From Spirochaetaceae bacterium (lineage in GTDB: Bacteria > Spirochaetota > Spirochaetia > DSM-2461): DNA of 64,000 nt. The position numbers and the translations under genes were made by a program. The stretch is from positions 226,678 through 290,677 of the forward strand of contig JAOPTT010000010.1 of NCBI GenBank assembly GCA_051531975.1, in the 5' to 3' direction. Shown here in pieces: positions 37,326-63,307 of this stretch; position 1 is the first letter of the stretch; every line of letters begins with the position of its first letter. The notes under the pieces were generated by a model. It was not told the origin of the DNA. It searched no databases and worked only from the letters and a program-made list of their open reading frames with translations.

Positions 37326-37712
37326 CTATAAATTAGTCTCAATATTATTCTTAACTAAATATTCAACAATGGCATCAACTAAGTTATCAGTTAAAACATG
37401 TTCTAACTTACATGCATTATCTTCTGCCTCTTTATCTGAAACATTTAATGTATGTTTTAAATAAAGTGTAATTAAAGTATGTTTACGATAAATACTTTCA
37501 GATAATTTTTTACCTTTATCTGTAAGTGTTATACTTCCATAAGGTTCATGTAATATATAGCCACCCTCTTTAAGGTTCTTTGTAGCTTTACTAACACTAG
37601 CTTTGGTAACACCAAGTTTTTTTCCAACATCTACACTATGAGCATTCCCATGAGTCTTTTCCATTAAATATATAGTTTCTAAATACATTTCCATGGATTC
37701 AGTATTGCTCAT
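37326..37712 (-). CDS. DtxR/MntR family metal-dependent regulator
   Basis: EMYLETIY, I.LT..G, RKH, ACKLEH. Confidence 0.92.
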   Translation of the reverse strand: MSNTESMEMYLETIYLMEKTHGNAHSVDVGKKLGVTKASVSKATKNLKEGGYILHEPYGSITLTDKGKKLSESIYRKHTLITLYLKHTLNVSDKEAEDNACKLEHVLTDNLVDAIVEYLVKNNIETNL

Positions 37713-37736
37713 TAGTACTCCAACGTTAATTTCAGC

Positions 37737-37774
37737 TTATTAAGAAAGTTAGCCACTACTAACTTTCTTAATAA
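37737..37774. promoter_or_regulatory. DtxR-type operator
   Basis: Perfect 16-bp inverted repeat TTATTAAGAAAGTTAG-N6-CTAACTTTCTTAATAA upstream of the regulator. Confidence 0.75.
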
Positions 37775-37826
37775 TGTATGTTAAAGTTATAATTGTCAAC
37801 ATAAAATATACTTTTATATTATCTTT

Positions 37827-38711
37827 TTAAGAAACCTCTACAGTTATGTGATCACATTTACATTTTAATTTAATTTCATTTTTGAATTCTTCTTTATCAA
37901 ACTCTTTATTAGGTTCTACAGAAATAATAATCCCTTTGTGTTTATCTGAAATATTCCATATATGTAAATCTTTTAATTGAGAGTTAGAAGAACTAACTAT
38001 ATTTTCTATAATTTCTTTGTCTTCTTTAATAGGGTAATAATCCACTAGAAGTTTTCCACTTGATATTAATAAACTATAAGCCCACTTCAGAATAACGATT
38101 GCTCCTAGTACAGCAACAGCTGCATCTGGCCAAGTATGATTAAAGAACTTACCAATAAGTAATGCGACTATCGCTAATATTGATGTAAAAGCATCTGTTA
38201 TTACGTGTATATAAGCAGCTCTTAGATTGTGATCATGATGATGTTCATGTCCGTGTCCATGGTGGTGGTCGTGTCCCCCAGAAGAGAGTAATAAAGCAGA
38301 TATTATATTAACAATAAAACCAAAAGCTGCAACAAATAATGCCTGGTTAAAAATTATATTTTCAGGGTTGAGTATTCTATGAACTGATTCTGAGATCATG
38401 AATACAGCAGTAATACCTAATACAATTGCATTTGTATATCCCCCTAATACTCCTACTTTCCCACTTGAGAAAGGATAATTTTCATTATCTTTATGCTTTT
38501 TTGCAATATAATATGCGACCATTGTAATTATTAGTGCAAATGTATGGGTTCCCATATGGATACCATCTGCTAATAACGCCATAGACCCAGTAATTATTCC
38601 AAATATTATTTCTGCTACCATAGTTACTACTGTAATTATTACTACGATCCCAGTTCTTTTCATATTATTATCATTATGAGTATCTTCTATTTTTTGATTA
38701 CAAATCCGCAT
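37827..38711 (-). CDS. dmeF: CDF Co/Ni efflux transporter (DmeF-like)
   Basis: SMALLADGIHMGTH, His-rich loop, NLRAAYIHVITD. Confidence 0.8.
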   Translation of the reverse strand: MRICNQKIEDTHNDNNMKRTGIVVIITVVTMVAEIIFGIITGSMALLADGIHMGTHTFALIITMVAYYIAKKHKDNENYPFSSGKVGVLGGYTNAIVLGITAVFMISESVHRILNPENIIFNQALFVAAFGFIVNIISALLLSSGGHDHHHGHGHEHHHDHNLRAAYIHVITDAFTSILAIVALLIGKFFNHTWPDAAVAVLGAIVILKWAYSLLISSGKLLVDYYPIKEDKEIIENIVSSSNSQLKDLHIWNISDKHKGIIISVEPNKEFDKEEFKNEIKLKCKCDHITVEVS

Positions 38712-38719
38712 ATTGTCTC

Positions 38720-39130
38720 CTATATTACCTTCTGAATTTTATCTAATTGAGCAAAAAATGTTTCACATTCTTTTACCCCTAGAGAGTCAATAATCTCTTT
38801 TATTAAATGATCATGCATTGTATGGTGATTCTCATATTCAGTTTTACCTTTATCTTTTAACCTTATAAAAAATGATCTTTTATCTACATCATCTTTAATT
38901 TTCTCTATATACCCTTTAGAAGCTAATCTGTGTACCATTACTGTTAATGTTCCAGTTGTAACACCTAATATTTTTGATAGTTCTTTCATTCTAATTTTTC
39001 CATTATTACCAACCACTTCTAATAGGTGCATTTGCGCAACAGATATGTCTCTATCTGATACAACATCGTTTTCCCAAGAGGACATTCGTTCAAAAAATTC
39101 TACTAATATATTGGAGTATTTATCATTCAT
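38720..39130 (-). CDS. MarR family regulator (start at MNDKY)
   Basis: ELSKILGVTTGTLT...DKRS..I.L..KG. Confidence 0.88.
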   Translation of the reverse strand: MNDKYSNILVEFFERMSSWENDVVSDRDISVAQMHLLEVVGNNGKIRMKELSKILGVTTGTLTVMVHRLASKGYIEKIKDDVDKRSFFIRLKDKGKTEYENHHTMHDHLIKEIIDSLGVKECETFFAQLDKIQKVI

Positions 39131-39135
39131 ACATT

Positions 39136-39183
39136 TACCTTGATTATCAAGGTATATAGAATTAGTTTGATTGTCAAGGTAAA
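39136..39183. promoter_or_regulatory. Paired MarR operator palindromes
   Basis: TACCTTGATTATCAAGGTA and TTGATTGTCAAGGTA just upstream of marR. Confidence 0.7.
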
Positions 39184-39411
39184 TTAATATATGAATCTTA
39201 GATTTTAAAATGATATTCCTTGCACCCAATAATAGATAAATGTCCCTTACCTACTCCTAGAGAGTTTAAAAATAATACACTTTCATTATTTGCATAATCC
39301 TATAATTTCCGGACACCGATTCCTGTATTAAAAGACAGTCATTCCCGAAAAAATAACATTTAACATTATGATAACTCATACCCTTTCCAGATTCAAATAA
39401 CATAATAAATT

Positions 39412-39439
39412 GCTTCCGATAATAGGTACTCTGACTACC
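39412..39439 (+). other. dif-like recombination site (spacer TAGGTA), left edge of module array
   Basis: GCTTCCGATAA TAGGTA CTCTGACTACC. Confidence 0.7.
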
Positions 39440-39522
39440 TGATCGATAATAATTATTTTTATCAAGAAATAATGCTCCTATAAATAGTATTAGAATCTAG
39501 AAAAACTTTTCCATTTATAAAG

Positions 39523-39972
39523 TCAGTAACTAGATATAATTGAGACTACCTTTAATAAAAGCAGTAGTAATCCAAATGCATTAGAAGTTATTAGGAGAAT
39601 AATAGCTATTTGAGTTGCTTTATCCATAAGATGCATTTTTTTATTAAAAAACAAATCATAATATAATAAGACAGTAAAAGTATCAGATAAAATAACAGTT
39701 CTAATAGATCCTAATAAAGGACCAAATAGTAAAAGTATAACAGGTACAAATATTGTAACCTCATCGAAATAACCAGCTAAATAGAAAAATATAACTGAAC
39801 CAGGATAGATAAGAATTCCTATAATTGCCAAATAGTTATTCTTTACGAGTTGTATAACTTTTATTTTACCAGCAGAATTAACAAAGAACCTAGCTTTACA
39901 CTTTAAGCAAACATGTTTACCTGCTTCTACAATATCAATTTTTTTATTGCATCCAGGACATCTAATTATCAT
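39523..39972 (-). CDS. Zinc-ribbon plus membrane hypothetical protein
   Basis: CPGC...CLKC then 3 TM helices. Confidence 0.65.
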   Translation of the reverse strand: MIIRCPGCNKKIDIVEAGKHVCLKCKARFFVNSAGKIKVIQLVKNNYLAIIGILIYPGSVIFFYLAGYFDEVTIFVPVILLLFGPLLGSIRTVILSDTFTVLLYYDLFFNKKMHLMDKATQIAIILLITSNAFGLLLLLLKVVSIISSY

Positions 39973-40112
39973 ATGAAATTATTATACCTCCCTTTTAGCA
40001 AATATGTATTAATTCTATTTATTTTAAACAATCCTGTGGTTCAGGAGTAATATACTTAGTTTTTAATATATACAATGTTAGATGATGAATACATTAGATA
40101 TAGCGTATAAGT

Positions 40113-40562
40113 TCACTGCATTATAGCTTCTATAATAGGTATGTGAGTTTCTGCTATATGTATATTTAGTAATTCTGCTTTTGAAATAAATTTCAATTCT
40201 CTTGATTCCTCACTACATTTTAATTTAGAAAAATCTTTTATATGAACATTAAAGACAATTGTTATAACTCTTCTAGAATTACCATCACTATATTCAATTA
40301 TACTTGTTGGATTAGAAAGTGTTTTAAACATCTCACACTGAACAGCTTCTAACCCTGTCTCTTCTAATGTTTCTCGTATCACACAATCTTTAAAGTCTTC
40401 ATTTGATTCTAATCCTCCACCAATAAATGCCCAACGATCAGAATCGACACGATGCTCCACTAAATATTTTTGATCCTTAACTATCAATGCTACACAACCT
40501 AATAATGGTGGTAAATTTGGAATAGGAGCAGTCGGATTTTTATAATAAAATATTGCACTCAT
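40113..40562 (-). CDS. NUDIX hydrolase (cassette-like)
   Basis: GG.LE..E....C..RET.EETGL; GTTAGAA core at 40585-40591 upstream and ATCTAAC at 40077-40083 downstream. Confidence 0.9.
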   Translation of the reverse strand: MSAIFYYKNPTAPIPNLPPLLGCVALIVKDQKYLVEHRVDSDRWAFIGGGLESNEDFKDCVIRETLEETGLEAVQCEMFKTLSNPTSIIEYSDGNSRRVITIVFNVHIKDFSKLKCSEESRELKFISKAELLNIHIAETHIPIIEAIMQ

Positions 40563-40603
40563 ATAGTCTCCTAATATATATTTCTTCTAACGTTTCGATG
40601 ATA

Positions 40604-41011
40604 TTAAATTATAGCCTTAAAGAATGATTCAATATCATTTGAAATACCAGGTAACATACCTAACTCAGTAGAAATAATAGATTCTAAATACCATGAATCT
40701 TTTCCACCGGTATTTTTATTTGTTAAAATTGTTTTAATTATAATATGACCTAAATTATCGCATTTTAATTCAATTGAAAATTCTTCTTCTAATGAACTCC
40801 ATGAATATTCTCCTTTCCAGCCATTAGCATGTGATGAAACTTCTTTAAATAGTGCTATGAGATCATTGCATTTTAAATACTTATATACTTTTAATGATCC
40901 AGTACAGGACTTTGAACTAACTAACACTGTAAAATAGTCTTTTTGATTATCATATAATTTTATGTAACGATCACTTTCACTTGATTTGATAATAACTTCA
41001 TGATTATTCAT
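40604..41011 (-). CDS. Hypothetical protein (DUF6228-like), first gene after attI-like platform
   Basis: GWKGEYSWSSLE...CDNLGHI; GTTAGAC core upstream. Confidence 0.7.
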   Translation of the reverse strand: MNNHEVIIKSSESDRYIKLYDNQKDYFTVLVSSKSCTGSLKVYKYLKCNDLIALFKEVSSHANGWKGEYSWSSLEEEFSIELKCDNLGHIIIKTILTNKNTGGKDSWYLESIISTELGMLPGISNDIESFFKAII

Positions 41012-41033
41012 AAGTCCTCCTATAATTTAATTT

Positions 41034-41185
41034 GTCTAACTTAAGCAATTACGAAATATTGCTTTATTGCTTTATTGCTTTATTGCTTTATTGCTTTATT
41101 GCTTTATTGCTTTATTGCTTAAAATATAATACTTCAAATAATAAACTAAGTAACATACTTTATATATTTAATAACATTACAAATA
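41034..41185 (-). repeat. attI/promoter-like platform, copy 1
   Basis: Homologous to 43274-43377 and 63241-63307; ends in GTTAGAC before RBS and gene. Confidence 0.75.
41058..41120. repeat. 8-bp VNTR (ATTGCTTT) about 8 copies
   Basis: Seven full units plus one partial. Confidence 0.95.
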
Positions 41186-41213
41186 GATTCTTAGTTTAGG
41201 TATTCGGTCTACT
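41186..41213 (+). other. dif-like site (TAGGTA)
   Basis: GATTCTTAGTT TAGGTA TTCGGTCTACT. Confidence 0.7.
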
Positions 41214-41220
41214 TAAGGGA

Positions 41221-41308
41221 TTTTCATGTCCCCCCAGGTATATAAATGTAAGTTCTATTAGTAGTAAACAGAGTTACATACGCCAATTTAGGCTGTATTA
41301 TGTTATCC
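41221..41308 (-). other. Degenerate attC-like site
   Basis: GGATAAC after stop, internal hairpin ATGTAA/TTACAT, ends ATGAAAA 7 bp before dif-like site. Confidence 0.4.
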
Positions 41309-41314
41309 ATAAAA

Positions 41315-41776
41315 CTATTTCTTAACTAAATAAAACTTTTGATGAGGATATTCAAACTCAACTGTTAATTCTGATTCTATAAATCCAAATTTTTTATATA
41401 AAGCACGGGGTGCAGTACCCCGAATATCATTTTCACGAAAAGTTGATACCGATATTGTTGAATTATCTGGAAAAAGATTAATCATTTTATTAACCATAAT
41501 GGTTGCGACCCCATTTCTCCTATGATCTGGATGAACAGCCATACATCCAAGACAATTTGATGATAAAGAGAAAATCAAGATTCCAATAATAACATTATCA
41601 GATTTAACACATAACGCTGTGTTTCTTTTTATGTTTTTAAGAACAGTAATTCTGTAATTGATCATCTCTTCATCGGTATCAAGCCCTGGAAAATTATCTT
41701 TGACTAAACCAATCATATTCATCCACAAATCAATGTCTTTAATACCTGCGACTTCTAACTTATATTTATTTACCAA
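41315..41776 (-). CDS. GNAT acetyltransferase
   Basis: AVHPDHRRNGVAT, ALYKKFGF. Confidence 0.9.
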   Translation of the reverse strand: MVNKYKLEVAGIKDIDLWMNMIGLVKDNFPGLDTDEEMINYRITVLKNIKRNTALCVKSDNVIIGILIFSLSSNCLGCMAVHPDHRRNGVATIMVNKMINLFPDNSTISVSTFRENDIRGTAPRALYKKFGFIESELTVEFEYPHQKFYLVKK

Positions 41777-41783
41777 TTTGTTT

Positions 41784-41811
41784 CCTTCCTAATTTAGGTA
41801 TTCGGTCTACT
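41784..41811 (+). other. dif-like site (TAGGTA)
   Basis: CCTTCCTAATT TAGGTA TTCGGTCTACT; fills almost the whole intergenic gap. Confidence 0.75.
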
Positions 41812-41813
41812 AT

Positions 41814-42467
41814 TTAAATTTTATATTTGCAATTTATTATAAAATCTTTTAATGATAAGCCCATTTTTCTATCCATATGAAATACATTTAATCCTACTTC
41901 TTTAGCAGCTATAATATTTTCTATTTTATCATCAATAAAAATACAACTTGCAGCATTTTTTTGTATTTTTTCAATTGTATAAGTATATATTCTATTATCT
42001 GGTTTATCAAAACCAACATACGAAGAGATAATAATGTGTTTAAAATATTTTCTTAAATCTAAATAATCAAACGCCCAATCTAAACTTGCATTAGCATTTG
42101 ATAATACATGGAGAGTAAACTTATCTTTTAGTTTTTCTAATACACTTATGGTGTCATCAAATAACTTATATTGAAATGTATCACAATTTAATATAAATAA
42201 TTTATCTAACAATACTTCATTTTGGGGATCAATGACTGAAACAATGATCTTTGTTCGTTCTAATAACCATTTTTTTTCATCTGACCAATTGTTAATTCTA
42301 TCATATTTTTCATTATCAAAATTATTAGCTTTAGATAGAGCTAATTCTATTAGTTCTTTAGTATAATTCATTGATGATAGGATTCTTCTTGTTATGTCAT
42401 TTCTAAACTCATTTATATAAAACAGAACTCCACCTGCATCAAAAATTATAGTATCTATATTATTCAT
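41814..42467 (-). CDS. HAD-IA family hydrolase
   Basis: IIFDAGGVL, LSNA, KPD, FIDDKIENI. Confidence 0.9.
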   Translation of the reverse strand: MNNIDTIIFDAGGVLFYINEFRNDITRRILSSMNYTKELIELALSKANNFDNEKYDRINNWSDEKKWLLERTKIIVSVIDPQNEVLLDKLFILNCDTFQYKLFDDTISVLEKLKDKFTLHVLSNANASLDWAFDYLDLRKYFKHIIISSYVGFDKPDNRIYTYTIEKIQKNAASCIFIDDKIENIIAAKEVGLNVFHMDRKMGLSLKDFIINCKYKI

Positions 42468-42564
42468 TTAGCCCCTCAATAAAATTATTTTTAACATTAT
42501 TTATGCTGTAATTAAATCTATAAAATGACATTTATAATCCTTAAGTGTACATGAGAATATTAGT

Positions 42565-42592
42565 ACATCTTAATATAGGTATTCGGTCTACT
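42565..42592 (+). other. dif-like site (TAGGTA)
   Basis: ACATCTTAATA TAGGTA TTCGGTCTACT; supplies TAG stop of 42588-42911. Confidence 0.75.
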
Positions 42593-42911
42593 TTATATAA
42601 ATATAGCTTATTTTTTTAAAGTCAAAATCCATATTCATTTCTTTAATAATATTTTGTGGATATGGTCCAATTTGTAAAGCATCAAATTCAGTTATAATAT
42701 CTTCAATAACTTCAATATCTCCTTTCAGGATGTCAGACATATTAAATTGTATGTTAATGGCATTTTCAGTTATATATAAACCTATTGAGATCATATTATC
42801 AGTAATTAAACTAAAACTTGATTGAACTAAATATAATGTTTGAAGGTTTTCAAATTGTTTGCTTTTACTTATGGTACATGCATTTAATGATCTTTCTATA
42901 AAATCCTTCAC
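42588..42911 (-). CDS. Hypothetical cassette gene, possibly truncated by the dif-like site
   Basis: Starts after attC core GTTAGGC; stop lies inside the dif-like arm. Confidence 0.55.
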   Translation of the reverse strand: MKDFIERSLNACTISKSKQFENLQTLYLVQSSFSLITDNMISIGLYITENAINIQFNMSDILKGDIEVIEDIITEFDALQIGPYPQNIIKEMNMDFDFKKISYIYIK

Positions 42912-42941
42912 TTTCGTTTATCATCCTTTTTAAATAATTTC

Positions 42942-43058
42942 GCCTAACGTTCCCGAGCATACACGCAGTTATTATTTTTACCATTTTTGCAGAGCAAAAT
43001 AAAAACAGAATAATTGGCCGTAGGCTGAGCGTAGCGAAACTTGTATGCTTTGTTATAC
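42942..43058 (-). other. Integron attC site
   Basis: GTATAAC-AAAGCATAC...GTATGCTCGGGAAC-GTTAGGC, locally GC-rich imperfect palindrome right after a stop codon. Confidence 0.85.
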
Positions 43059-43062
43059 GCTG

Positions 43063-43245
43063 TTAATTATTATTAAACCTTTTGTTAAATTCTTTTTCTT
43101 CCATACGATCTTCTTTTACTTGTTTCTTTACTAAAGACTTTTCTAATAATCTTTTACCTTCATGCTCATTGGCAAAAAAGTCATTAACTTCCTTCTTACT
43201 CATCCCTTTTGTCAATTTAAATGTTTCATGGTAACTATTAGCCAT
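43063..43245 (-). CDS. Small hypothetical cassette gene
   Basis: RBS AAGGA; bounded by GTTGTAC core and attC. Confidence 0.65.
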   Translation of the reverse strand: MANSYHETFKLTKGMSKKEVNDFFANEHEGKRLLEKSLVKKQVKEDRMEEKEFNKRFNNN

Positions 43246-43273
43246 AATAAGTCCTTTAATAATAATTAATTGT

Positions 43274-43377
43274 GTACAACTTAAGCCATTACGAAATATT
43301 GCGTTTTTGCTTTAAATATAATACTTCAAATAATCAACTAAGTAACATACTTTTTATATTTAAACACATTACAAATA
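43274..43377 (-). repeat. attI/promoter-like platform, copy 2
   Basis: Near-identical to copy 1 without VNTR expansion; ends in GTTGTAC. Confidence 0.75.
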
Positions 43378-43405
43378 ACTTCTTAGGTTAGGTATTCTGT
43401 CTAGT
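43378..43405 (+). other. dif-like site (TAGGTA)
   Basis: ACTTCTTAGGT TAGGTA TTCTGTCTAGT. Confidence 0.7.
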
Positions 43406-43407
43406 TG

Positions 43408-44463
43408 TTAAATATTATTGACTGAATAATCTAACTTAAATGGTAACTTATTTTTAATTTTTTTTAATACAATTCCAGTACGACTATCAACAATTACTTT
43501 CCAATATATTGAGAAATAGCTTAAATATCTATCTTGAAAGATACTTGATTCTGCTCTTCTAGGTTTATCTTTAATTAATTCTAATTGATATTCATTTTGA
43601 AATTCTTTATCCAACATAATAGTTGGAATTATATTGGTATTGATATTGGTAAGTATCTTATAGTCTAGGTTCATCATTGAGGCTATAATTTTTAACTTTT
43701 GATAGAGTTCCATTCGAACTAACAACTCTTTATATGACATATCTAATGATATTTCATTTGTTTCTAAATTAGTAATTTTGGCGAAAAAATCTAACTTATT
43801 ATTATCAATATTCTTATATATTTCATTAAATGTTGAATCTAATAATTCATCTATTTTATTTGATAGATGTTGTTTTTTCTTATCTCCCTTTAATCTCATA
43901 TTTTCTTTAATGATTTCTTTTTGATCTTTATATTTCGTAGCTGCATTTTTATCAATAGTTAAGTCTCTTAGTGATATGTTTAATAAGCTTCTATCTTCAT
44001 TATGCAACTGAGGAGGTACTGAAGCAAAAAAAAGTCCCTCTTCATTATTTTGTGTATGTGTACTAAGCAGCTGAGTATGTAAATGTAAATCCCCTAGTAG
44101 ATCAAATCCAGAAACTATTTCTATATGTTCATTAATATACTTAGTTAATGCTTCTTGATCAATTTTATCAACACTATTCCCTAAAACGTATTCAAACTCT
44201 AATATCATTAAATTTAATGATGATGGAGGGCCATTTAGATTTTTTATTTTGTAAAAGTATTCAACACTTTGCAAAGATTTTAATCGTTCTTTTCTAATCC
44301 CATCATTTTTATAATTCATAAGCTCTTTTAAATTATTCATTGTAAAAAGAGGAATAAATCCTTTTTTATATAAATCATTAATTTCATCTTTTAAATTCTT
44401 TTTTTTAATCATATTACTCCATGTCGAAGTATCTAGAATTATTGGTCTTGTGAAAATTATCAT
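43408..44463 (-). CDS. Hypothetical protein, possible PIN-like nuclease
   Basis: IILDTS at N-terminus, ..KEL, C-terminal QD...VD acidic residues. Confidence 0.5.
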   Translation of the reverse strand: MIIFTRPIILDTSTWSNMIKKKNLKDEINDLYKKGFIPLFTMNNLKELMNYKNDGIRKERLKSLQSVEYFYKIKNLNGPPSSLNLMILEFEYVLGNSVDKIDQEALTKYINEHIEIVSGFDLLGDLHLHTQLLSTHTQNNEEGLFFASVPPQLHNEDRSLLNISLRDLTIDKNAATKYKDQKEIIKENMRLKGDKKKQHLSNKIDELLDSTFNEIYKNIDNNKLDFFAKITNLETNEISLDMSYKELLVRMELYQKLKIIASMMNLDYKILTNINTNIIPTIMLDKEFQNEYQLELIKDKPRRAESSIFQDRYLSYFSIYWKVIVDSRTGIVLKKIKNKLPFKLDYSVNNI

Positions 44464-44562
44464 AAAAATCCTTAAAAAATTGATATCACTAAATTATGAT
44501 GCTAAATACTTATATTTCAAGAAAAATAATCTGTCTCTATTATGGGGTATACCAGTTTGAAT

Positions 44563-44627
44563 TTTTAACGGCCTGTTGAGAATAAAGTCTGTTCCAAAAT
44601 ATTTTATTTTCCAACAGTTTGTTATGT
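44563..44627 (-). other. Integron attC site (65 bp)
   Basis: ACATAAC-AAA-CTGTTG(G)AAAATAAA...TTTATTCTCAACAG-GCC-GTTAAAA with an unpaired G. Confidence 0.8.
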
Positions 44628-44637
44628 ACCTATTTAC

Positions 44638-45657
44638 TTATGAAAGTATATCTAATTCATATTCATCTATATATTTATTAATTGGAATGTCAAACTCTTT
44701 ATACAGTTCATACGTAGTTGAATTAATTCCTGACCATTTTTCTTTCCAGCAATCATCAAAGTATTTCTTATCATCTTTTATAATTAGTAAATCTCTTATT
44801 AAACCTAGAATATTTGTATTTTCTCCAATCTTTTTTTTATATTCTAAATATTTATCATTATCTATTAAACTCAACTCTTTTATATTTTTAATACCAAATA
44901 TATTTAATTCATCAATTATTTCTGTACTATTTTTTCGCCATTCATTTGGTGATATTTTCTGTATAATTGCTGAATAAACACTAGAGTTGAAATATTCAAG
45001 TAAAGTTGTTGAATTAATTTCATAATCAAACTTTTGATTGTTAAATTTTTCTTTTATTTCTATTGTATATTCTTCTATATCTTTAGCGATGTTATTAAAT
45101 TCATTATCAGCTACTTCTAAAACAGCAGATATTAAATTAAAACGTCTCTTAATTTCTGTTGGTAAGGTACCACTAAATTTGTAATTTTTATCATGTTCAA
45201 TTTCAGCCCATGTATGTTGTAATAGTGTTCTTATTTGAATTTCAAATACATAATTTTTAAAATTAGAATACTCTGGTAATAAACATCTATTACTATTAAT
45301 TTTGCATATATAATGTATAGATCTATAGCCAATTTTATTTATTCCCAAATCTTCATTCTTATTTGAAGTTTCATTCTGATCTATATCAAACTCATCTTCA
45401 ATTAATTTACATATTGTTGTAACATCATCTTGAACATATGCTATTATCCTAAGTCCTATATAGTCTTTTATTTCATATTTAGGATTTTTATAATTTTCTG
45501 CTTTAGTTAAAAAACTTTTTAGTGATTTTGCTCTTCCATTAATATCGTGAACTTCCAAAGAATTTACAGCAATGATCCTTTTTAATAATTCATTAATTGT
45601 TATTGTAGCACTTTCATATAGTGGTAATTTATTATTATAATAATTTTTCAGTTCCAT
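44638..45657 (-). CDS. RelA/SpoT-domain small alarmone synthetase with C-terminal extension
   Basis: R.KS..S...K, DYIGLRII, GYRSIHY, EIQIRTLLQHTWAEIEH. Confidence 0.9.
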   Translation of the reverse strand: MELKNYYNNKLPLYESATITINELLKRIIAVNSLEVHDINGRAKSLKSFLTKAENYKNPKYEIKDYIGLRIIAYVQDDVTTICKLIEDEFDIDQNETSNKNEDLGINKIGYRSIHYICKINSNRCLLPEYSNFKNYVFEIQIRTLLQHTWAEIEHDKNYKFSGTLPTEIKRRFNLISAVLEVADNEFNNIAKDIEEYTIEIKEKFNNQKFDYEINSTTLLEYFNSSVYSAIIQKISPNEWRKNSTEIIDELNIFGIKNIKELSLIDNDKYLEYKKKIGENTNILGLIRDLLIIKDDKKYFDDCWKEKWSGINSTTYELYKEFDIPINKYIDEYELDILS

Positions 45658-45757
45658 TTTATTTCCTAATCTTGATTTTTTATACTATGACTTGCTTACT
45701 GTTTCATGTGTCATTTTTTTTCATATTATTTCCTTATGTTCAATTTTTTAAACTGTC

Positions 45758-45779
45758 GCTTCCTAGTATTCGTTCTACA
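45758..45779 (+). other. Internally deleted dif-like site
   Basis: GCTTCC-TAGTA-TTCGTTCTACA. Confidence 0.5.
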
Positions 45780-45786
45780 TGGGGAA

Positions 45787-45902
45787 TTTTTACGTTCTCA
45801 TCAGCTGTTTTACTTGCTGGAGTGAACCTAGGTGTTTGAGGAATATTATTTTTCTGCAGATAGTTTTAAAACAGTAAAATCTATTCCAAGAGTTTATTAA
45901 AT
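45787..45902 (-). other. Degenerate attC site
   Basis: ATTTAAT-AAAC-TCTTGGAATAGA matches left end of 51569 attC; ends GTAAAAA 7 bp before dif-like remnant. Confidence 0.55.
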
Positions 45903-45942
45903 ACCTCATAAAAGTTATTTGATAAAAAGTCATTTACAACTT

Positions 45943-46725
45943 TTATTTTAGTTCATCTTCAATGTTATTAATGTCATAAATTATATTATCTATAAATTGT
46001 GATCCTAAAGAAGTTATTTTAAGTTCTGCTTTATTTGTTGAGTTTTCAATTACTTCAAAAATCTCTTTTCTGTAGTCATCTATTATATTTTCTATAGTAC
46101 TACTTTTGTAATTACTAGGAAATGAATAATTAAAACTAGAATTTATATCCAAAGTTCTTCTTAAAAGAGCAAAATTTTGTAAACTTGAAGTATTAAAATC
46201 AAAATGGTTCTGGCATAGTTCTAACTTTTTTATATCTCTAATGTGTACAGCTGGTGGCATAATTATATCTGGATAAATAAATTCTAATTTAGAACGCGTA
46301 GGGTATAATTCATTATTTTCTTTTGTATGAAAATATATGAGAATTATAACTTGTTCATATGTAATATCTTCTAAAATAGCAATAAATTTTTCTGTGATAT
46401 TAGGTTCTATTTCTTCATATATTCCCTTTCCTATTATCGATGTAATCCATTCCCTTTTTTTCTTATTATTAGTTTTAGCAGAAATTCTAATACCTTCTTC
46501 TAGTAGGAAAAGAGCATCTAAATTACTCTTACATTTATCCTCAATATCCTCAAACCTTGTTGATAATAACTTAAGAAAATCTGTGACTCTATCCATCCGC
46601 TGATTAGGTATAATTGCTGAAACTAATTCACCCAGAAATGTTCCTGCTAAAGGTACAGCTCCTAGAGTAGATTTTATTGCAGAATTTACTACATCAATCC
46701 TATTATTTGATAAATTTTCATTCAT
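45943..46725 (-). CDS. Hypothetical protein (Abi-alpha-like N-terminus, tentative)
   Basis: LGAVPLAG..LGEL....IPNQRMDR..DFL; C-terminal ITSLG.QF. Confidence 0.6.
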   Translation of the reverse strand: MNENLSNNRIDVVNSAIKSTLGAVPLAGTFLGELVSAIIPNQRMDRVTDFLKLLSTRFEDIEDKCKSNLDALFLLEEGIRISAKTNNKKKREWITSIIGKGIYEEIEPNITEKFIAILEDITYEQVIILIYFHTKENNELYPTRSKLEFIYPDIIMPPAVHIRDIKKLELCQNHFDFNTSSLQNFALLRRTLDINSSFNYSFPSNYKSSTIENIIDDYRKEIFEVIENSTNKAELKITSLGSQFIDNIIYDINNIEDELK

Positions 46726-46758
46726 ATTTTCCTCATCCTTTTTTATATATTAATTAAA

Positions 46759-48060
46759 TTAAGATAATACTCTTCTTATAGTTTCTATTAGTGATTTTAA
46801 TAAATATAATATTCTAGTTAAAGGAAAAACAGATGATATAACAGCAATTATGGCAATTACTAATGCATCAAATCCAAAGTTCGTTGAATATATAGATATT
46901 GCATCATTTAAATTGTTTCTAGTCATTTTTAGTTCTTTTTCTATTCCTATAAGTTGCTTTCTTAAAATATTATTGAAGTTAGAATATAAGGGTTTAACAG
47001 GGTTATTATCGATAGGTACTAATAAGTCACTTTCTATTTTAACTTTGTAAAAATGAGGAACAACTCTTTGGGTATTTTCTTTTTTATCTCTTTCTTGTCC
47101 AACGATCCACATAGTGAAAGGAATATTAATATAGCTGACACCATATTCTAGATATTTTTCTAGCTTATCAGTGTATAATAAATACTTAGGATAAATACTT
47201 TCAAGGTCGAAAATTGTTTTGGGTATATTTTTTAAATAATTCCAACTTTTAAATCTTTTAAAAATATGTAATAAATTACTTGGGACTCCGTGTAAAGAAT
47301 TAATTATTTGATCATTTAATTTTATAATTTGTTTTTGAATCTTTGATAATTTATTTTGAAATAACTCAAAATCATTATATAGGAGAATATCTAAACATAT
47401 TCTATCTCTAATTACTTTCTTGTTTTCCCCAAAATAAACTGAATATAATCTGCCTTGATTATGTATTTGTTTATCTCCAATATTAGTCAAAGAAAAAAAA
47501 CGATTATCATTAAGATCTAATTTAAACACTGGATAATCAGCATCAGTTTTTAACTTTAAATCTTCTAAGTTATTGTATAAAACATCCCAGAATGGATTTG
47601 GAATCCAATGTATTTCAATATTTAATTTTCTTGAAATACTTAGACATTGATTTCTAAACGCTAGTTCAGAAGAAGTTTTTTCATTGAGTTGCTCAATTAT
47701 AAAGCTATTTTCTTCAATTTGCATTGTAAAAAAAATCATCATTCCATCATAGAATATCTCAATAATGCCCTCTTCGGTTTGATATTTAATAAATAACTGA
47801 TAAGGAAATCCTAAATAAGATGTCTCATGAATAACTTTTATGTATTTTATATTTTCTATATTTATAATCTCATTTTTTATATCCAGTAATTCTTCTTTTA
47901 TATTTCTACAGAAGAGATGATTAATGTACCCTAGATTAATATCGTCATTGTCAAAATCTTCTTCAATAGTAGTATTCCAATCAATTTTTCTTGATAATAT
48001 AGGTTTCTCAGGGATACTACAGAAATTTAGAGCTAAATTATTTATTTTTACTTTTTCCAC
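46759..48060 (-). CDS. Hypothetical protein with coiled coil and C-terminal TM
   Basis: 433-aa ORF; hydrophobic C-terminus. Confidence 0.65.
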   Translation of the reverse strand: MEKVKINNLALNFCSIPEKPILSRKIDWNTTIEEDFDNDDINLGYINHLFCRNIKEELLDIKNEIINIENIKYIKVIHETSYLGFPYQLFIKYQTEEGIIEIFYDGMMIFFTMQIEENSFIIEQLNEKTSSELAFRNQCLSISRKLNIEIHWIPNPFWDVLYNNLEDLKLKTDADYPVFKLDLNDNRFFSLTNIGDKQIHNQGRLYSVYFGENKKVIRDRICLDILLYNDFELFQNKLSKIQKQIIKLNDQIINSLHGVPSNLLHIFKRFKSWNYLKNIPKTIFDLESIYPKYLLYTDKLEKYLEYGVSYINIPFTMWIVGQERDKKENTQRVVPHFYKVKIESDLLVPIDNNPVKPLYSNFNNILRKQLIGIEKELKMTRNNLNDAISIYSTNFGFDALVIAIIAVISSVFPLTRILYLLKSLIETIRRVLS

Positions 48061-48211
48061 AACAACCTCAGAAATTTTTAAATTATATACCGTTTTAATA
48101 TTAAGTTACGCATGAAATTTTAATTGTTTATTTAAGTGTAAAAATCACCGATTTATCGTTGATTAAGTTTATCTTATTACTGTCTGTATACAAACTAAAT
48201 ATATTCCCTTC

Positions 48212-49282
48212 TCATGAATCAAGGTTATTAGATATATATATTTCATCTCTAATTTTTCTTTGAATTGAATTGTTTGATGGATAATAATTCGAATCTAAAA
48301 TTTTATTATTCTCTTTAAGATAGTTTTTGTAATTCGATAAAATTTCCTCAAAAAATCCCAAATCTAAAGTATTCTTTTTCAAACCCACTTGAATAATTTT
48401 ATTTAAAGCCATTGTTAACCCACCAAAACCTGCAGTACGATTTATTATGTACTTTTTAGGATCGTTCCATTCTAAATTAAAAATGTTTTCGGCAGCTTTA
48501 AAATAATTGAAAATGATTTTATAAATAATGGAATCTTCTTCCCTTATAAAATAATATCTTAGAGGGAGCATTTCATCAGGAACTATTTTTTTTCTGTTTT
48601 TTATGTTTATAGTATCTTCTTTTGGTTTTTTAGAAATTAAATTAATAAGATAATTTACAAAAGTACCTTGAGATATCGTTTCTGAATCTAATTGTTTTTT
48701 CCCTAACATTTTTAAACGCCGATAAAATGGTGAATTTTCATCAGAATTTAAAGCTCTTGCTAATTCATGCATAGTCTTAAATGGACTTCTTGTTTCTGAA
48801 ATATGAAACAAATCATATATTAAAGATGGATCAATTTTTTTTTGGTTAGAATTTATTGTTGAAAAAACGTAGGCTTTTTCTTCTTCTGTAAGATCAGGCA
48901 TTATTACAAGAGGTATTTGAATTGATTTATTTAAGGAACTTTCTGTTATACCTAATAATCTATGCTGACCATCAATTATTTCAAATAAATTTTTTTCATT
49001 TTCGTTAAACTCTATTGTATTATTATCTATAGTAAAATTATCACTATCTATTGAAACAATTATTGCAGATGGAAAAGTTGCATCGGGATCTTCACAGTAT
49101 TTTTGAATATTTTTAATTCTTTCCTTTGAATCTTTTCTCTGAATACCACCTGAAGATATAAAAAGTTGAGGGTCATAATCACGTCTATTAATAAAACAAT
49201 ATTTGTATAATAAATTTATTTCAATAACAGATAAATAGTAAGAACCTATTGGTTGAGTTATAGTAAGATATTGGAGTTTCAT
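48212..49282 (-). CDS. DGQHR-domain (DndB/ParB-like) protein
   Basis: GIQR, FPSAII, IIDGQHRL, FSTINSNQKKI. Confidence 0.9.
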   Translation of the reverse strand: MKLQYLTITQPIGSYYLSVIEINLLYKYCFINRRDYDPQLFISSGGIQRKDSKERIKNIQKYCEDPDATFPSAIIVSIDSDNFTIDNNTIEFNENEKNLFEIIDGQHRLLGITESSLNKSIQIPLVIMPDLTEEEKAYVFSTINSNQKKIDPSLIYDLFHISETRSPFKTMHELARALNSDENSPFYRRLKMLGKKQLDSETISQGTFVNYLINLISKKPKEDTINIKNRKKIVPDEMLPLRYYFIREEDSIIYKIIFNYFKAAENIFNLEWNDPKKYIINRTAGFGGLTMALNKIIQVGLKKNTLDLGFFEEILSNYKNYLKENNKILDSNYYPSNNSIQRKIRDEIYISNNLDS

Positions 49283-49809
49283 ATTTTTATTCCCCTATTG
49301 TCATTTTTGATATTCTTTGATTTGTTTTTGATTTGTGAAACTATTTTATCATCTTGTTCTTTGAAATTATCCATATCCATATGTAAATATAAGGAAAGGT
49401 AGGAATATACAATAATAAGTATACCTATTGTATATATTCCAACCTGCAACCAAAGTTTTGTATTTGTAATAATATTTGTTAAATCTGATAAAAGAAAACT
49501 GGATATAATTATTGATAATATAGAACAAGCAATCAAAAATAATTTATATGATTTAAAATGAGCTGCAGTATCAGAAAAAGTTGATTTTATAATTAAATAC
49601 ATAGAAGAACCTAATAAAGGAATTATTGTATTATATAATAAACCTGTTTCTGAAAATGAGATTAATCCTTTTAAAATATCATCCTGGTTTAGAATTATCT
49701 GAAAAATTGGTAAAAATAAACCCAATTGACCAATAATTAATGTAAATAAAATAAATGTATAAAATTGCCATTTAATACTCTTTATAATTTTGAATGGTTT
49801 TATAATCAT
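49279..49809 (-). CDS. 4-TM membrane protein translationally coupled to DGQHR gene
   Basis: Four hydrophobic helices; ATGA overlap. Confidence 0.75.
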   Translation of the reverse strand: MIIKPFKIIKSIKWQFYTFILFTLIIGQLGLFLPIFQIILNQDDILKGLISFSETGLLYNTIIPLLGSSMYLIIKSTFSDTAAHFKSYKLFLIACSILSIIISSFLLSDLTNIITNTKLWLQVGIYTIGILIIVYSYLSLYLHMDMDNFKEQDDKIVSQIKNKSKNIKNDNRGIKI

Positions 49810-49926: not shown

Positions 49927-50517
49927 CTAAGATTTAAGGAAATTATACAAAGTAGTCCGACTAATCCCAACAGCACTAGCTACTACACTTTTTTGTTCAC
50001 CTAAAGATAACAAAGCATTTATTTGTGATGCCTTTTGCTTTGTTATCTTGGTAGATCCTTTAGGTCTACCAAGGATTACACCTCTATCTTTTGCTCTTTG
50101 AATACCTAGCTTTGTTCTTTCACCTAATAGCTTAACTTCTCTTTTTGCTAATGATAGCTGCAGGTCGAATATAAACTCTTCTTCTGCTGACATTCCCTTC
50201 TTGATTGTTAAGTTAGACATTACGACATAGATCTCTAGATCTTCTCTTACATCTGTTATATGCCTTAGTAGCTTTAAACCATCCCTGGTATTTCTTCCTA
50301 TCCTGGATATCTCTGTTACTACTATCTTTTTAACTTCTGGGTTTATGATATGATCCCAGAGTTTCCGGTTCTCTAATTTGGTTTTAGAAGCTGATACTTG
50401 CTCCAGGATAATGTCATCGAATGTGATACTCATCATCTCTTCGTATCTTTCGAAAAAGGTTCGGTATTTATCTTTGTCCTGGGCTACAGAACTTATTCTA
50501 CTGTATGCAATTATCAT
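49927..50517 (-). CDS. Serine recombinase (resolvase/invertase)
   Basis: YSRISS..Q, EISRIGRN, ERTK.G...AK..G..LGRP, C-terminal HTH GISRTTLY. Confidence 0.92.
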   Translation of the reverse strand: MIIAYSRISSVAQDKDKYRTFFERYEEMMSITFDDIILEQVSASKTKLENRKLWDHIINPEVKKIVVTEISRIGRNTRDGLKLLRHITDVREDLEIYVVMSNLTIKKGMSAEEEFIFDLQLSLAKREVKLLGERTKLGIQRAKDRGVILGRPKGSTKITKQKASQINALLSLGEQKSVVASAVGISRTTLYNFLKS

Positions 50518-51728: not shown

Positions 51729-51756
51729 AGTAGACAGAATGATAATTATCGGAAGT
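51729..51756 (-). other. dif-like site (TTATCA), best match to consensus
   Basis: ACTTCCGATAA TTATCA TTCTGTCTACT. Confidence 0.8.
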
Positions 51757-53767: not shown

Positions 53768-53795
53768 GCTTCTGATAATTATCATTCCGTCTACT
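53768..53795 (+). other. dif-like site (TTATCA)
   Basis: GCTTCTGATAA TTATCA TTCCGTCTACT. Confidence 0.8.
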
Positions 53796-59461: not shown

Positions 59462-59489
59462 TTTAAACTGAGTGATAATTATCAGAGGT
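59462..59489 (-). other. dif-like site (TTATCA)
   Basis: ACCTCTGATAA TTATCA CTCAGTTTAAA. Confidence 0.6.
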
Positions 59490-60534: not shown

Positions 60535-60562
60535 AGTTGACTTAGTGATAATTATTGGAAGT
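60535..60562 (-). other. dif-like site (TTATCA)
   Basis: ACTTCCAATAA TTATCA CTAAGTCAACT. Confidence 0.7.
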
Positions 60563-63240: not shown

Positions 63241-63307
63241 AAAATTCGTTGTTTGAAGTACTATACTAAAAGTAATAACGCAATATTTCGTAATTGCTAA
63301 GTTAGGC
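63241..63307 (+). repeat. attI/promoter-like platform, copy 3 (inverted relative to copies 1-2)
   Basis: TTTGAAGTACTATA...GCAATATTTCGTAATTGCTAA-GTTAGGC. Confidence 0.75.

Follow-up and report, generated by a model that had tools for sequence, protein, structure and literature searches.

Gene modules moved by the host Xer recombinases have been described mainly from Acinetobacter, where the sites must alternate. In these dif (pdif) modules and islands, 11-6-11 copies of the host dif site flank small accessory genes away from the terminus (PMC13141974, PMC12907356); C/D sites alternate with D/C sites, mobilization is pairwise or through cointegrates, and direct sites with matching spacers get excised (PMC13141974). 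IMEX (TLC-phi, CTX-phi, VGJ-phi and the gonococcal genetic island, GGI) instead enter at the chromosomal dif as phages or islands that bring genes for replication or transfer, and form direct-repeat host XerCD junctions with one good and one degenerate site; stability is linked to this degeneracy, which in TLC-phi and GGI affects the XerD arm (PMC5357621, 10.1101/2021.09.09.459576). A further variant is the hybrid dif-like site of Tn6022, which combines a perfect host XerD half-site with a non-canonical other half and needs an adjacent element-encoded XerC-like gene (PMC11014353).

The array analyzed here lies on contig C10 of a spirochaete genome (G000), in a stretch of 64,000 nucleotides that we call the window. 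As in Acinetobacter, small accessory genes are bounded off the terminus by 11-6-11 copies of the host dif, there is no recombinase of its own, a serine resolvase is part of the cargo, and the XerD arm is more conserved than the XerC arm; in contrast, there are six consecutive one-way sites with one spacer, inner XerC arms without TAA and a spirochaete host. It shares with IMEX the direct-repeat junctions and the degenerate sites, although the target is not dif (which is on C6), the modules carry no replication or transfer genes among those recognized (four of their ORFs are unassigned), and it is the XerC arm that is degenerate. The intact XerD half recalls Tn6022, but no XerC-like gene of the required kind was found in G000. 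A one-directional row of small genes and a proposed single entry site are also features of integrons and integrase-less cassette arrays, and attI-like and attC-like pieces are present in modules A, D and E of a genome that has an integron on C8. Here, however, the boundaries are double-stranded dif copies rather than attC hairpins, attC is absent from them, IntI is not adjacent, and the genes read toward the proposed entry site, which therefore could not supply a common promoter. Our best reading is that the array functions in the manner of Acinetobacter dif modules and IMEX arrays while departing from the layouts that define them.

Six co-oriented dif-like sites with one spacer

The six sites, all at gene boundaries, comprise five of 28 bp and one from which 6 bp are deleted, and share the spacer TAGGTA (Table 1). 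An earlier note on this DNA had reported their positions, common + orientation and spacer, a right arm common to the internal sites, a consensus-like left arm in the first site only, and modules of one to three genes; each of these was re-found. Spacer plus right arm (17 bp, at most one mismatch) is present four times in the window versus 0.00 expected (100 shuffles), and an arm profile trained on these same array sites gave 12 matches above 20 bits over the whole genome versus 1 in locally shuffled DNA.

The arms of site 39412 depart from the family consensus by 0 and 1 mismatches, and it is the sole array site with both arms intact. Together with the TTATCA sites it matches the host dif in both arms with a 6-bp spacer, whereas the inner sites (41186, 41784, 42565 and 43378) match in the XerD arm only: that arm is of consensus quality, and the XerC arm lacks the inner TAA. 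When arm positions 9-11 were left free in the search, TAA occupied them in 135 of 142 non-G000 matches, among the 150 of 188 matches listed. These positions vary among the inner left arms, yet TC(C/T)TA at positions 4-8 is common to the four inner sites and to C1:45168, whose spacer and right arm are identical to those of site 43378. By inspection, the left inner bases (TAGTT, TAATT, TAATA and TAGGT) are no mirror image of the XerD arm. In 8 listed spirochaete genomes the sole dif-type match has the inner right arm, TTCGGTCTAC(T/C). We also note that reading the inner sites with an 8-bp spacer restores TA(A/G/T) beside the center and breaks the outer arm register (inspection).

Deleted-type sites (wrongly spaced, the outer left arm lying 0-9 bp ahead of a right arm that has at most two mismatches) number only three in the 5.46-Mb genome, one of them here, and this rarity makes 45758 probably a decayed site. 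No two-arm site was found on the opposite strand within 39200-46000; single-arm matches were at chance level, and decayed opposite-facing sites inside the array were rejected on this ground. One XerD-like 11-mer at 41290(-) is among these matches. The departure from the alternating pdif layout (PMC13141974) that had been pointed out earlier is thus borne out, and inverse C/D alternation was seen only for 51756/53768 and the C1 pairs.

Table 1. Features of the array and its surroundings (window coordinates).
Feature	Position	Strand	Remarks
dif-like site 1	39412..39439	+	GCTTCCGATAA-TAGGTA-CTCTGACTACC; consensus XerC arm, near-consensus XerD arm; left island border
Module A gene 3	39523..39972	-	149-aa membrane protein, N-terminal CxxC pair; no Pfam, PADLOC or NCBIfam match
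Module A gene 2	40113..40562	-	NUDIX hydrolase; PF00293 E 1e-12
Module A gene 1	40604..41011	-	DUF6228; PF19739 E 7e-14
Orphan attI-like motif heading module A	41038..41062	-	GCAAT-N8-ATTGC then GTT
XerC-side flank common to sites 41186 and 43378	41105..41185	.	sequence comparison
dif-like site 2	41186..41213	+	degenerate XerC arm GATTCTTAGTT, TAGGTA, XerD arm TTCGGTCTACT
Module B, GNAT acetyltransferase	41315..41776	-	PF00583 E 1.5e-9
dif-like site 3	41784..41811	+	degenerate XerC arm CCTTCCTAATT, TAGGTA, XerD arm TTCGGTCTACT
Module C, HAD hydrolase	41814..42467	-	PF00702 E 1e-17; stop codon 2 bp from XerD arm
dif-like site 4	42565..42592	+	degenerate XerC arm ACATCTTAATA, TAGGTA, XerD arm TTCGGTCTACT
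Module D gene 2	42588..42911	-	107-aa orphan; stop codon within XerD arm of site 4
attC-like site between module D genes	42942..43058	-	R and L boxes read from sequence
Module D gene 1	43063..43245	-	60-aa ORF
Orphan attI-like motif heading module D	43278..43302	-	sequence
dif-like site 5	43378..43405	+	degenerate XerC arm ACTTCTTAGGT, TAGGTA, XerD arm TTCTGTCTAGT
Module E gene 2	43408..44463	-	351-aa unknown; stop codon 2 bp from XerD arm; no family match
Shortened attC-like site, module E	44563..44627	-	ends resemble C8 attC sites (inspection)
Module E gene 1	44638..45657	-	RelA/SpoT-domain protein; PF04607 E 3e-20; PADLOC PDC-S33 E 2e-17
dif-like site 6	45758..45779	+	6 bp deleted; presumably dead
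Serine resolvase	49927..50517	-	second copy in C1 island beside another TAGGTA site
dif-like site, spacer TTATCA	51729..51756	-	both arms consensus
dif-like site, spacer TTATCA	53768..53795	+	both arms consensus
Weak dif-like site, spacer TTATCA	59462..59489	-	decayed XerD arm; 12.8 bits
dif-like site, spacer TTATCA	60535..60562	-	XerD-side flank common to three sites on C1 and C3

Host dif, other dif-like sites and Xer genes

The host dif, GCTTCCGATAA-TATATA-TTCTGTCTACT, was assigned at C6:356277 on a 728-kb contig from a GC-skew peak 32 kb off and a flip in GGGNAGGG polarity (4:1 left, 0:4 right); it keeps the same gene neighbors in the relatives G001 and G002. Its spacer differs from that of the array at two of six positions, and it fits the array better than the Firmicute dif first taken as a model, a resemblance that is incidental. 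At least 356 kb of sequence lie between it and the array. The earlier note had advised a check of the GC-skew terminus and KOPS polarity near the locus; the GC-skew and GGGNAGGG signals point to the C6 dif, and a terminal position for the array was rejected. As to an orientation set by FtsK, the XerD arm of every TAGGTA site in G000 lies toward the origin as judged by GC skew; in the complete relatives G006 and G011 the extra sites face both ways (read from coordinates).

Nine further dif-like sites lie in accessory islands of G000, and the four TTATCA sites in the window add to the six originally recognized. The confinement of the sites to accessory islands rules out a regulatory motif spread over the genome, the possibility that the earlier note had itself raised against its reading. 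Of the five PF00589 matches in G000, one is a fragment and the others are XerC, XerD, an integron integrase and a phage-type integrase; XerC and XerD, which lie on C17, match TIGR02224 and TIGR02225 best, both slightly below the curated cut-off. No third close Xer paralogue was found in G000, and a third XerC-like match (E<=1e-35) is present in only 2 of 38 family genomes and in none of the multi-site genomes.

Module genes and integron-like pieces

The modules (0.6-2.4 kb) hold 3, 1, 1, 2 and 2 ORFs, every one on the - strand. The ribosome-binding site of the GNAT gene falls within the left arm of site 41784, with the start codon 7 bp from the arm. The closest of five loci found for the HAD gene are clostridial (50-53% identical) and lack dif-like sites, and in the protein collection the 107-aa module D protein matched only itself. 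A promoter scan gave no excess over shuffles. A close homologue of the serine resolvase is plasmid-borne, and resolvase and dif-like site occur together on a plasmid of the genus, which speaks for part of the island having come from a plasmid; G001:C2 carries resolvase, cargo and one dif-like site. Searches of plasmids with the array DNA and the GNAT gene, and of metagenomes with the resolvase, gave no match. Because it is bounded by inverted ends of its own, the Tn3-like element at C1:42055-45052 was rejected as part of the C1 module.

The motif GCAAT-N8-ATTGC-GTT occurs in four copies in G000 and three in G001, with DNA that diverges downstream of GTT, and from its sequence we infer that it is attI-like. 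The attC-like site at 42942 resembles two intergenic repeats of a G001 cassette row, but its fold z is only -1.1; the weak one at 44563 has a fold z of -1.3, and neither matches the C8 attC profile. The attC heuristic and profile together found C8-type sites and missed those inside the modules.

Homology breaks, relatives and other carriers

Sequences 41105-41214 and 43297-43406 are 89% identical and their homology ends at the XerD arm: sites 41186 and 43378 have the XerC-side flank in common and differ on the XerD side. Conversely, four TTATCA sites share the XerD-side flank and differ on the other. Flanks thus swap at sites within G000, and on sequence comparison the breaks resemble the pattern that crossovers would leave.

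Among neighboring extra sites in relatives, 15 of 18 pairs are co-oriented, and 14 of these 15 differ at three or more spacer positions; direct pairs with matching spacers and both arms good are therefore rare. To the left of site 39412 is a marR-CDF pair, which in G001 occurs without the array and with unrelated genes after marR. The empty-site alleles for which the earlier note had advised a search did not turn up: no empty or differently filled allele was found among 30 relatives, and the array DNA matched only short repeats there.

In contigs of the probable source sample (the source is a marine spirochaete), the array has even cover of ~31-36x and no differences over 37672-41086 and 41307-46369; the interval 41087-41306, which holds site 41186, is bridged by no listed sample contig. 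These contigs, an assembly form that drops rare variants, contain no module-skipping or excision joint. One contig of this sample, at depth 6, combines the module head with a crippled-arm site at a distance of 26 letters and in unchanged register, which may point to a second carrier. Among sequencing runs, array DNA was detected only in the probable source sample, and no RNA run is listed as carrying it.

Under a strict pattern, the crippled-arm TAGGTA type is absent from the others of 400 class genomes, where the 33 other matches are dif-type with TAA, and it is absent from the genome and metagenome collections. Six of seven non-TAA class matches were fetched; the four with listed ORFs all fall within an ORF, which for two of these is a repeated gene present in identical copies. 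Viral contigs gave 11 and 1 scattered single matches, in no case accompanied by a second site within 1.5 kb, and no cargo module was seen dif-bounded elsewhere in the collections searched.

Proposed serial insertion and its alternatives

We put at about even odds (roughly 0.5) that host XerC and XerD stacked the modules one by one at 39412 and left junctions at which excision is inefficient. The incoming DNA would be non-replicating circles with a single TAGGTA site each, its XerD arm good and its XerC arm crippled, and these would recombine serially with 39412, the proposed receiving site. At every insertion the intact XerC arm would stay at 39412 for the next circle while the crippled-arm junction moved inward, and inner modules, with two crippled sites each, would rarely be excised despite matching spacers. 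The identity of the sites, the arm pattern, the homology breaks and the XerC and XerD genes are observations, whereas we infer that XerCD acts at this locus, that circles came in and in this order, and that the junctions lock; the damaged half of each inner site may be what protects the modules from excision. Serial insertion at one end predicts that only the border site should have both arms intact, as is seen. For the first module, insertion and excision would use the same four arms, and direction therefore needs an extra factor. Without the inner TAA, recombination might also fail entirely. FtsK normally activates XerD at the terminus, and the distance of the array from this place counts against the stacking model, as do the lack of an empty allele, a skipping joint or another carrier in the collections. 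Of the sequential Xer-type integration advanced in the earlier note, the co-oriented, same-spacer dif-like sites stand, whereas neither an empty allele in 30 relatives nor an excision joint in the sample contigs accompanies them.

A rather less probable alternative is that XerCD built the array on plasmids, through cointegrate formation and resolution, and that it possibly passed en bloc into the chromosome, only junctions with a decayed XerC arm being kept and opposite-facing sites being lost. The plasmid-type resolvase next to TAGGTA sites in the window and in C1, the contents of G001:C2, the inverted TTATCA pairs at 51756/53768 and C1:55283/56758, which look like C modules, and the existence of chromosomal dif module islands (PMC12907356) all agree with such a history. 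It is harder to reconcile with the strand-search result above, with modules B and C, which are too tight for an opposite-facing site, or with the mostly co-oriented arrays of relatives; moreover, five sites are alike in the three positions lost and in having T at position 7, for which random decay is an unlikely source. The left arms could also be chance look-alikes in donor DNA, single genes having been captured by illegitimate XerCD recombination, as the position of the GNAT ribosome-binding site and three genes ending 2, -5 and 2 bp from an XerD arm might suggest. We regard this as improbable: the full 6-bp spacer is common to all sites, the arms of 41186 and 43378 fall within a conserved 110-bp head, and the other left arms are away from gene starts.

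No more credible is the idea that the inner sites are hybrids for host XerD and an element-encoded XerC-like partner, lost or acting in trans. An intact XerD arm beside a different, self-consistent left arm matches the Tn6022 design (PMC11014353), but the PF00589 set of G000 and the rarity of a third match in the family offer no such partner, and a dedicated protein would normally need positions 9-11 to be conserved. Finally, the repeats might bind proteins or regulate, like the XerD-only sites that unload SMC in Bacillus, which have an XerD arm, a degenerate center and the five innermost bases of a second XerD arm (10.1101/2021.09.09.459576). That only the XerD arm is of consensus quality in the inner sites would suit this, but the center is invariant here, the left inner bases are no mirror image, and flank homology breaks at sites confined to islands, making such a role very remote.

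As a tentative extension that we hold less likely than not, the array might be an Xer-driven counterpart of the integron: one intact off-terminus dif-like entry site would take in gene circles with a dead XerC arm, each insertion locking the earlier ones, with some modules serving as mini-integron platforms (attI-like head plus cassettes) and relatives reaching the same stability by changed spacers. The array and the relatives indicate that dif copies are used in free-living spirochaetes in a different layout, one-directional rows, which in relatives escape deletion through unequal spacers and here through damage to the XerC arm. With their common spacer, the six natural sites form a test set for Xer direction off the terminus and for the function of an XerC arm without the inner TAA, and the locus would connect Xer modules with integron cassettes, both of them systems of gene capture.

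The array and its modules

The six co-oriented dif-like sites with spacer TAGGTA were all located where the earlier note had placed them, and the modules between them hold one to three genes, as it had claimed (table below). Spacer plus right (XerD) arm occurs four times in the window and in none of 100 shuffles, and the site carrying a 6-bp deletion has only two look-alikes genome-wide. Module GC is 23-31%, versus 31% in the DNA left of the array; three genes stop at most 5 bp from a XerD arm, and the left (XerC) arm of 41784 serves as the GNAT ribosome-binding site. The assembly matches contigs of the probable source sample except at 41087-41306, bridged by no piece among those listed, and in these contigs there is no joint skipping a module. 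A tandem 8-bp repeat (about eight copies, 41057-41120), in which slippage could tune a promoter, lies within the module A head, a ~110-bp stretch shared with the start of module D, and is missing from the module D head.

Features of the array, related islands and motif copies
Feature	Position	Strand	Content
dif-like sites	39412, 41186, 41784, 42565, 43378, 45758 (6 bp deleted)	+	spacer TAGGTA
Module A, 1774 bp	from 39412	-	3 ORFs: unknown membrane protein, NUDIX, DUF6228
Module B, 598 bp	from 41186	-	1 ORF: GNAT
Module C, 781 bp	from 41784	-	1 ORF: HAD
Module D, 813 bp	from 42565	-	2 ORFs: two orphans
Module E, 2380 bp	from 43378	-	2 ORFs: unknown, RelA/SpoT-domain protein
Defence-like cargo left of resolvase	45943-49809		weak Abi_alpha match, 433-aa unknown, DGQHR/DpdB-like protein, membrane protein
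Duplicated small-gene fragments, right part of island	58533-58651/61167-61285; 61385-61525/63102-63245		acylphosphatase-like by inspection
Second island, host contig C1	C1:45168-59313		TAGGTA site, large cargo genes, resolvase
Frameshifted Tn3-family element just left of second island	C1:42055-45052		own inverted ends
Third island, host contig C3	C3:106569-111507		co-oriented TTATCA sites 107950 and 109338 bracketing three small genes
GCAAT-N8-ATTGC-GTT, host genome	window 41038-41062, 43278-43302, 63280-63304; C25:66078-66102
GCAAT-N8-ATTGC-GTT, relative G001	C1:1402924, 1735278, 1897940
Complete integron	C8:31741-43310		IntI above TIGR02249 cut-off, at least 5 attC sites of 110 bp

Mismatches gather in one arm of the inner sites

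Only the first site has a consensus-like left arm, as had been noted: measured against the family arms, 39412 carries 0 (left) and 1 (right) mismatches, versus 4-5 and 1 in the inner four. Their right arm, TTCGGTCTAC, should be functional, since it serves as dif-type arm in eight listed spirochaete genomes. The inner left arms retain TC(C/T)TA at positions 4-8 and carry GTT, ATT, ATA and GGT at 9-11; a fifth crippled-arm site, C1:45168, has TTG there. A fair test of conservation is a search with positions 9-11 left free, in which TAA stood there in 135 of 142 matches from other genomes (150 of 188 matches listed); the 35-37/37 conservation of left-arm positions is partly built in, the training pattern having held those letters. 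For Vibrio, 10.1101/2021.09.09.459576 places the strongest constraint on inner arm positions. An imperfect palindrome, CYTA-NNN-TAGG, joins arm positions 5-8 to the first four spacer bases (sites within 41186-43405, and C1:45168).

The host dif lies elsewhere

An arm profile search of the host genome (5.46 Mb in 29 contigs) gave 12 strong matches. One, C6:356277-356304 (spacer TATATA), is the chromosomal dif, because it lies 32 kb off the cumulative GC-skew peak, where the polarity of GGGNAGGG, which we take to be the KOPS motif, flips (small counts), and because it has the same gene neighbours as the single site of each of two relatives, G001 and G002. The earlier note had proposed checking skew and polarity for a terminus near the array; the two both point to C6, and the array, on C10, is distant from the terminus, with at least 356 kb of sequence separating it from dif. 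The XerC and XerD genes are both on C17, and the integron integrase gene is on C8. Across Spirochaetia, many genomes have a single copy of these dif-type arms with an A/T-rich spacer (of 401 searched, 174 match with positions 9-11 free), and the right arm is TTCTGTCTAC, not TTATG. The host itself is a spirochaete: the predicted Leptospira dif (PMC3025954) has an identical left arm, and Thiospirochaeta is the source of the one plasmid record found to carry the resolvase of the island.

Extra sites in relatives

The dif pattern matched in 31 of 37 other family genomes, at least twice in 10, and the reversed pattern gave zero matches over the same genomes. Loci around extra sites were fetched from 9 genomes (20 loci). 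Among neighbouring extra-site pairs 60-3000 bp apart, 15 of 18 were co-oriented, a count that includes kin that are not independent and one inverted pair twice through duplication; in 14 of these 15 the spacers differ at three or more positions. A same-spacer pair at locus L022, below threshold with one XerD arm decayed, was left out. The spacers ACCAAT, CTAGCG and CCGGCC recur in several genomes around differing cargo. The crippled-arm TAGGTA type was found only in the host among class genomes and genome, metagenome and viral collections. A search for empty-site alleles, proposed earlier, returned none among 30 relatives, none of which matched the array beyond short repeats; in G001, unrelated genes follow marR, which belongs to the gene pair left of 39412.

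Locus L030 (G010:C4:262000-281999) holds a 9.8-kb element in tandem duplicate, with three or four dif-like sites per copy and primase-like, ParA-like and two integrase-like genes. At L019 (G032:C135), two co-oriented dif-like sites enclose ParA-like and Rep-like genes, a possible integrated mini-plasmid module.

Flank breaks and integron-like parts

Among 15 host sites compared, 41186 and 43378 have the XerC-side flank in common and not the XerD-side flank; four sites with a second spacer, TTATCA (window 60562, C1 twice, C3), have only the XerD-side flank in common. Such one-sided sharing is a sign of crossover. Spacer and right arm are identical between 43378 and C1:45168, both of which have cargo and a resolvase to their right; the resolvases of the two islands are 94% identical. 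One depth-6 contig from the same sample (main genome about 33) has a head match to 43352, 26 other letters, then 41785 onward; 43353-43378 is likewise 26 bases long, which keeps the site in register with the head, and this single short alignment is only a hint. Window 39429-39455 (the 39412 XerD arm and next bases) resembles a deleted form of the flank after the C1 TTATCA sites, a short alignment suggesting that one XerD end may have been joined to either spacer. In the second island an inverted TTATCA pair flanks one gene, and the resolvase upstream region is also present as an inverted second copy; the third island holds pieces of that region.

The head common to modules A and D ends in the palindromic GCAAT-N8-ATTGC, then GTT, after which they diverge. 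Unrelated genes lie downstream of the copies of this motif, with no integrase gene beside them, and in G001 it heads a gene row with attC-like repeats between genes; we infer a putative orphan attI-like site. Two G001 copies precede an element with a tyrosine recombinase and an IS91-like transposase that the host lacks. An attC-like site lies in module D and a shortened version in module E; neither folds better than shuffled sequence, and neither was matched by the C8 attC profile. The segment 45808-45911 has 78% identity to a C8 attC, and similar attC sites occur on C3, C5, C22 and C25.

How the array may have formed

The array sites are very probably Xer junctions of some kind, and non-recombinational XerD sites are a far-fetched reading. 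The most likely route, to which we give a probability of about 0.5, is successive insertion of circles at 39412 by host XerCD. On each incoming circle TAGGTA would be flanked by a good arm for XerD and a crippled one for XerC; 39412 would retain its good XerC arm through each insertion, and the crippled arms would pass to the inner junctions, where deletion, otherwise permitted between direct repeats with matching spacers (PMC13141974), would be resisted. Serial insertion is plausible from sequence, its weak points being that movement is predicted rather than observed, that no source of directionality was found and that the array is far from the terminus; there is a chance that the crippled arms are incapable of any recombination.

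Assembly on a plasmid followed by block transfer is a weaker candidate. By analogy with Tn6022 (PMC11014353), the inner junctions might be hybrid sites for a missing XerC-like partner, which is unlikely, multi-site genomes having no third XerC-like gene at E<=1e-35, and gene capture at chance look-alike sites seems equally improbable.

The survey by Shao et al. (2023) reportedly covers pdif modules outside Acinetobacter. Neither dif modules in spirochaetes nor co-oriented arrays that share a spacer and have damaged XerC arms were the subject of any paper found in literature searches, which covered few subscription papers and no bioRxiv supplements. The array works like the Acinetobacter dif modules, chromosomal islands included (PMC12907356), but fails their alternation rule, a difference already pointed out. 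It resembles IMEX (PMC5357621), yet sits away from dif, has no replicon genes and has its degraded arm on the XerC side, not the XerD side. For other genera, 10.1101/2022.12.17.520857 notes Xer sites adjoining genes. The array is real and serial insertion a plausible mechanism for it; relatives would escape deletion through unequal spacers instead.
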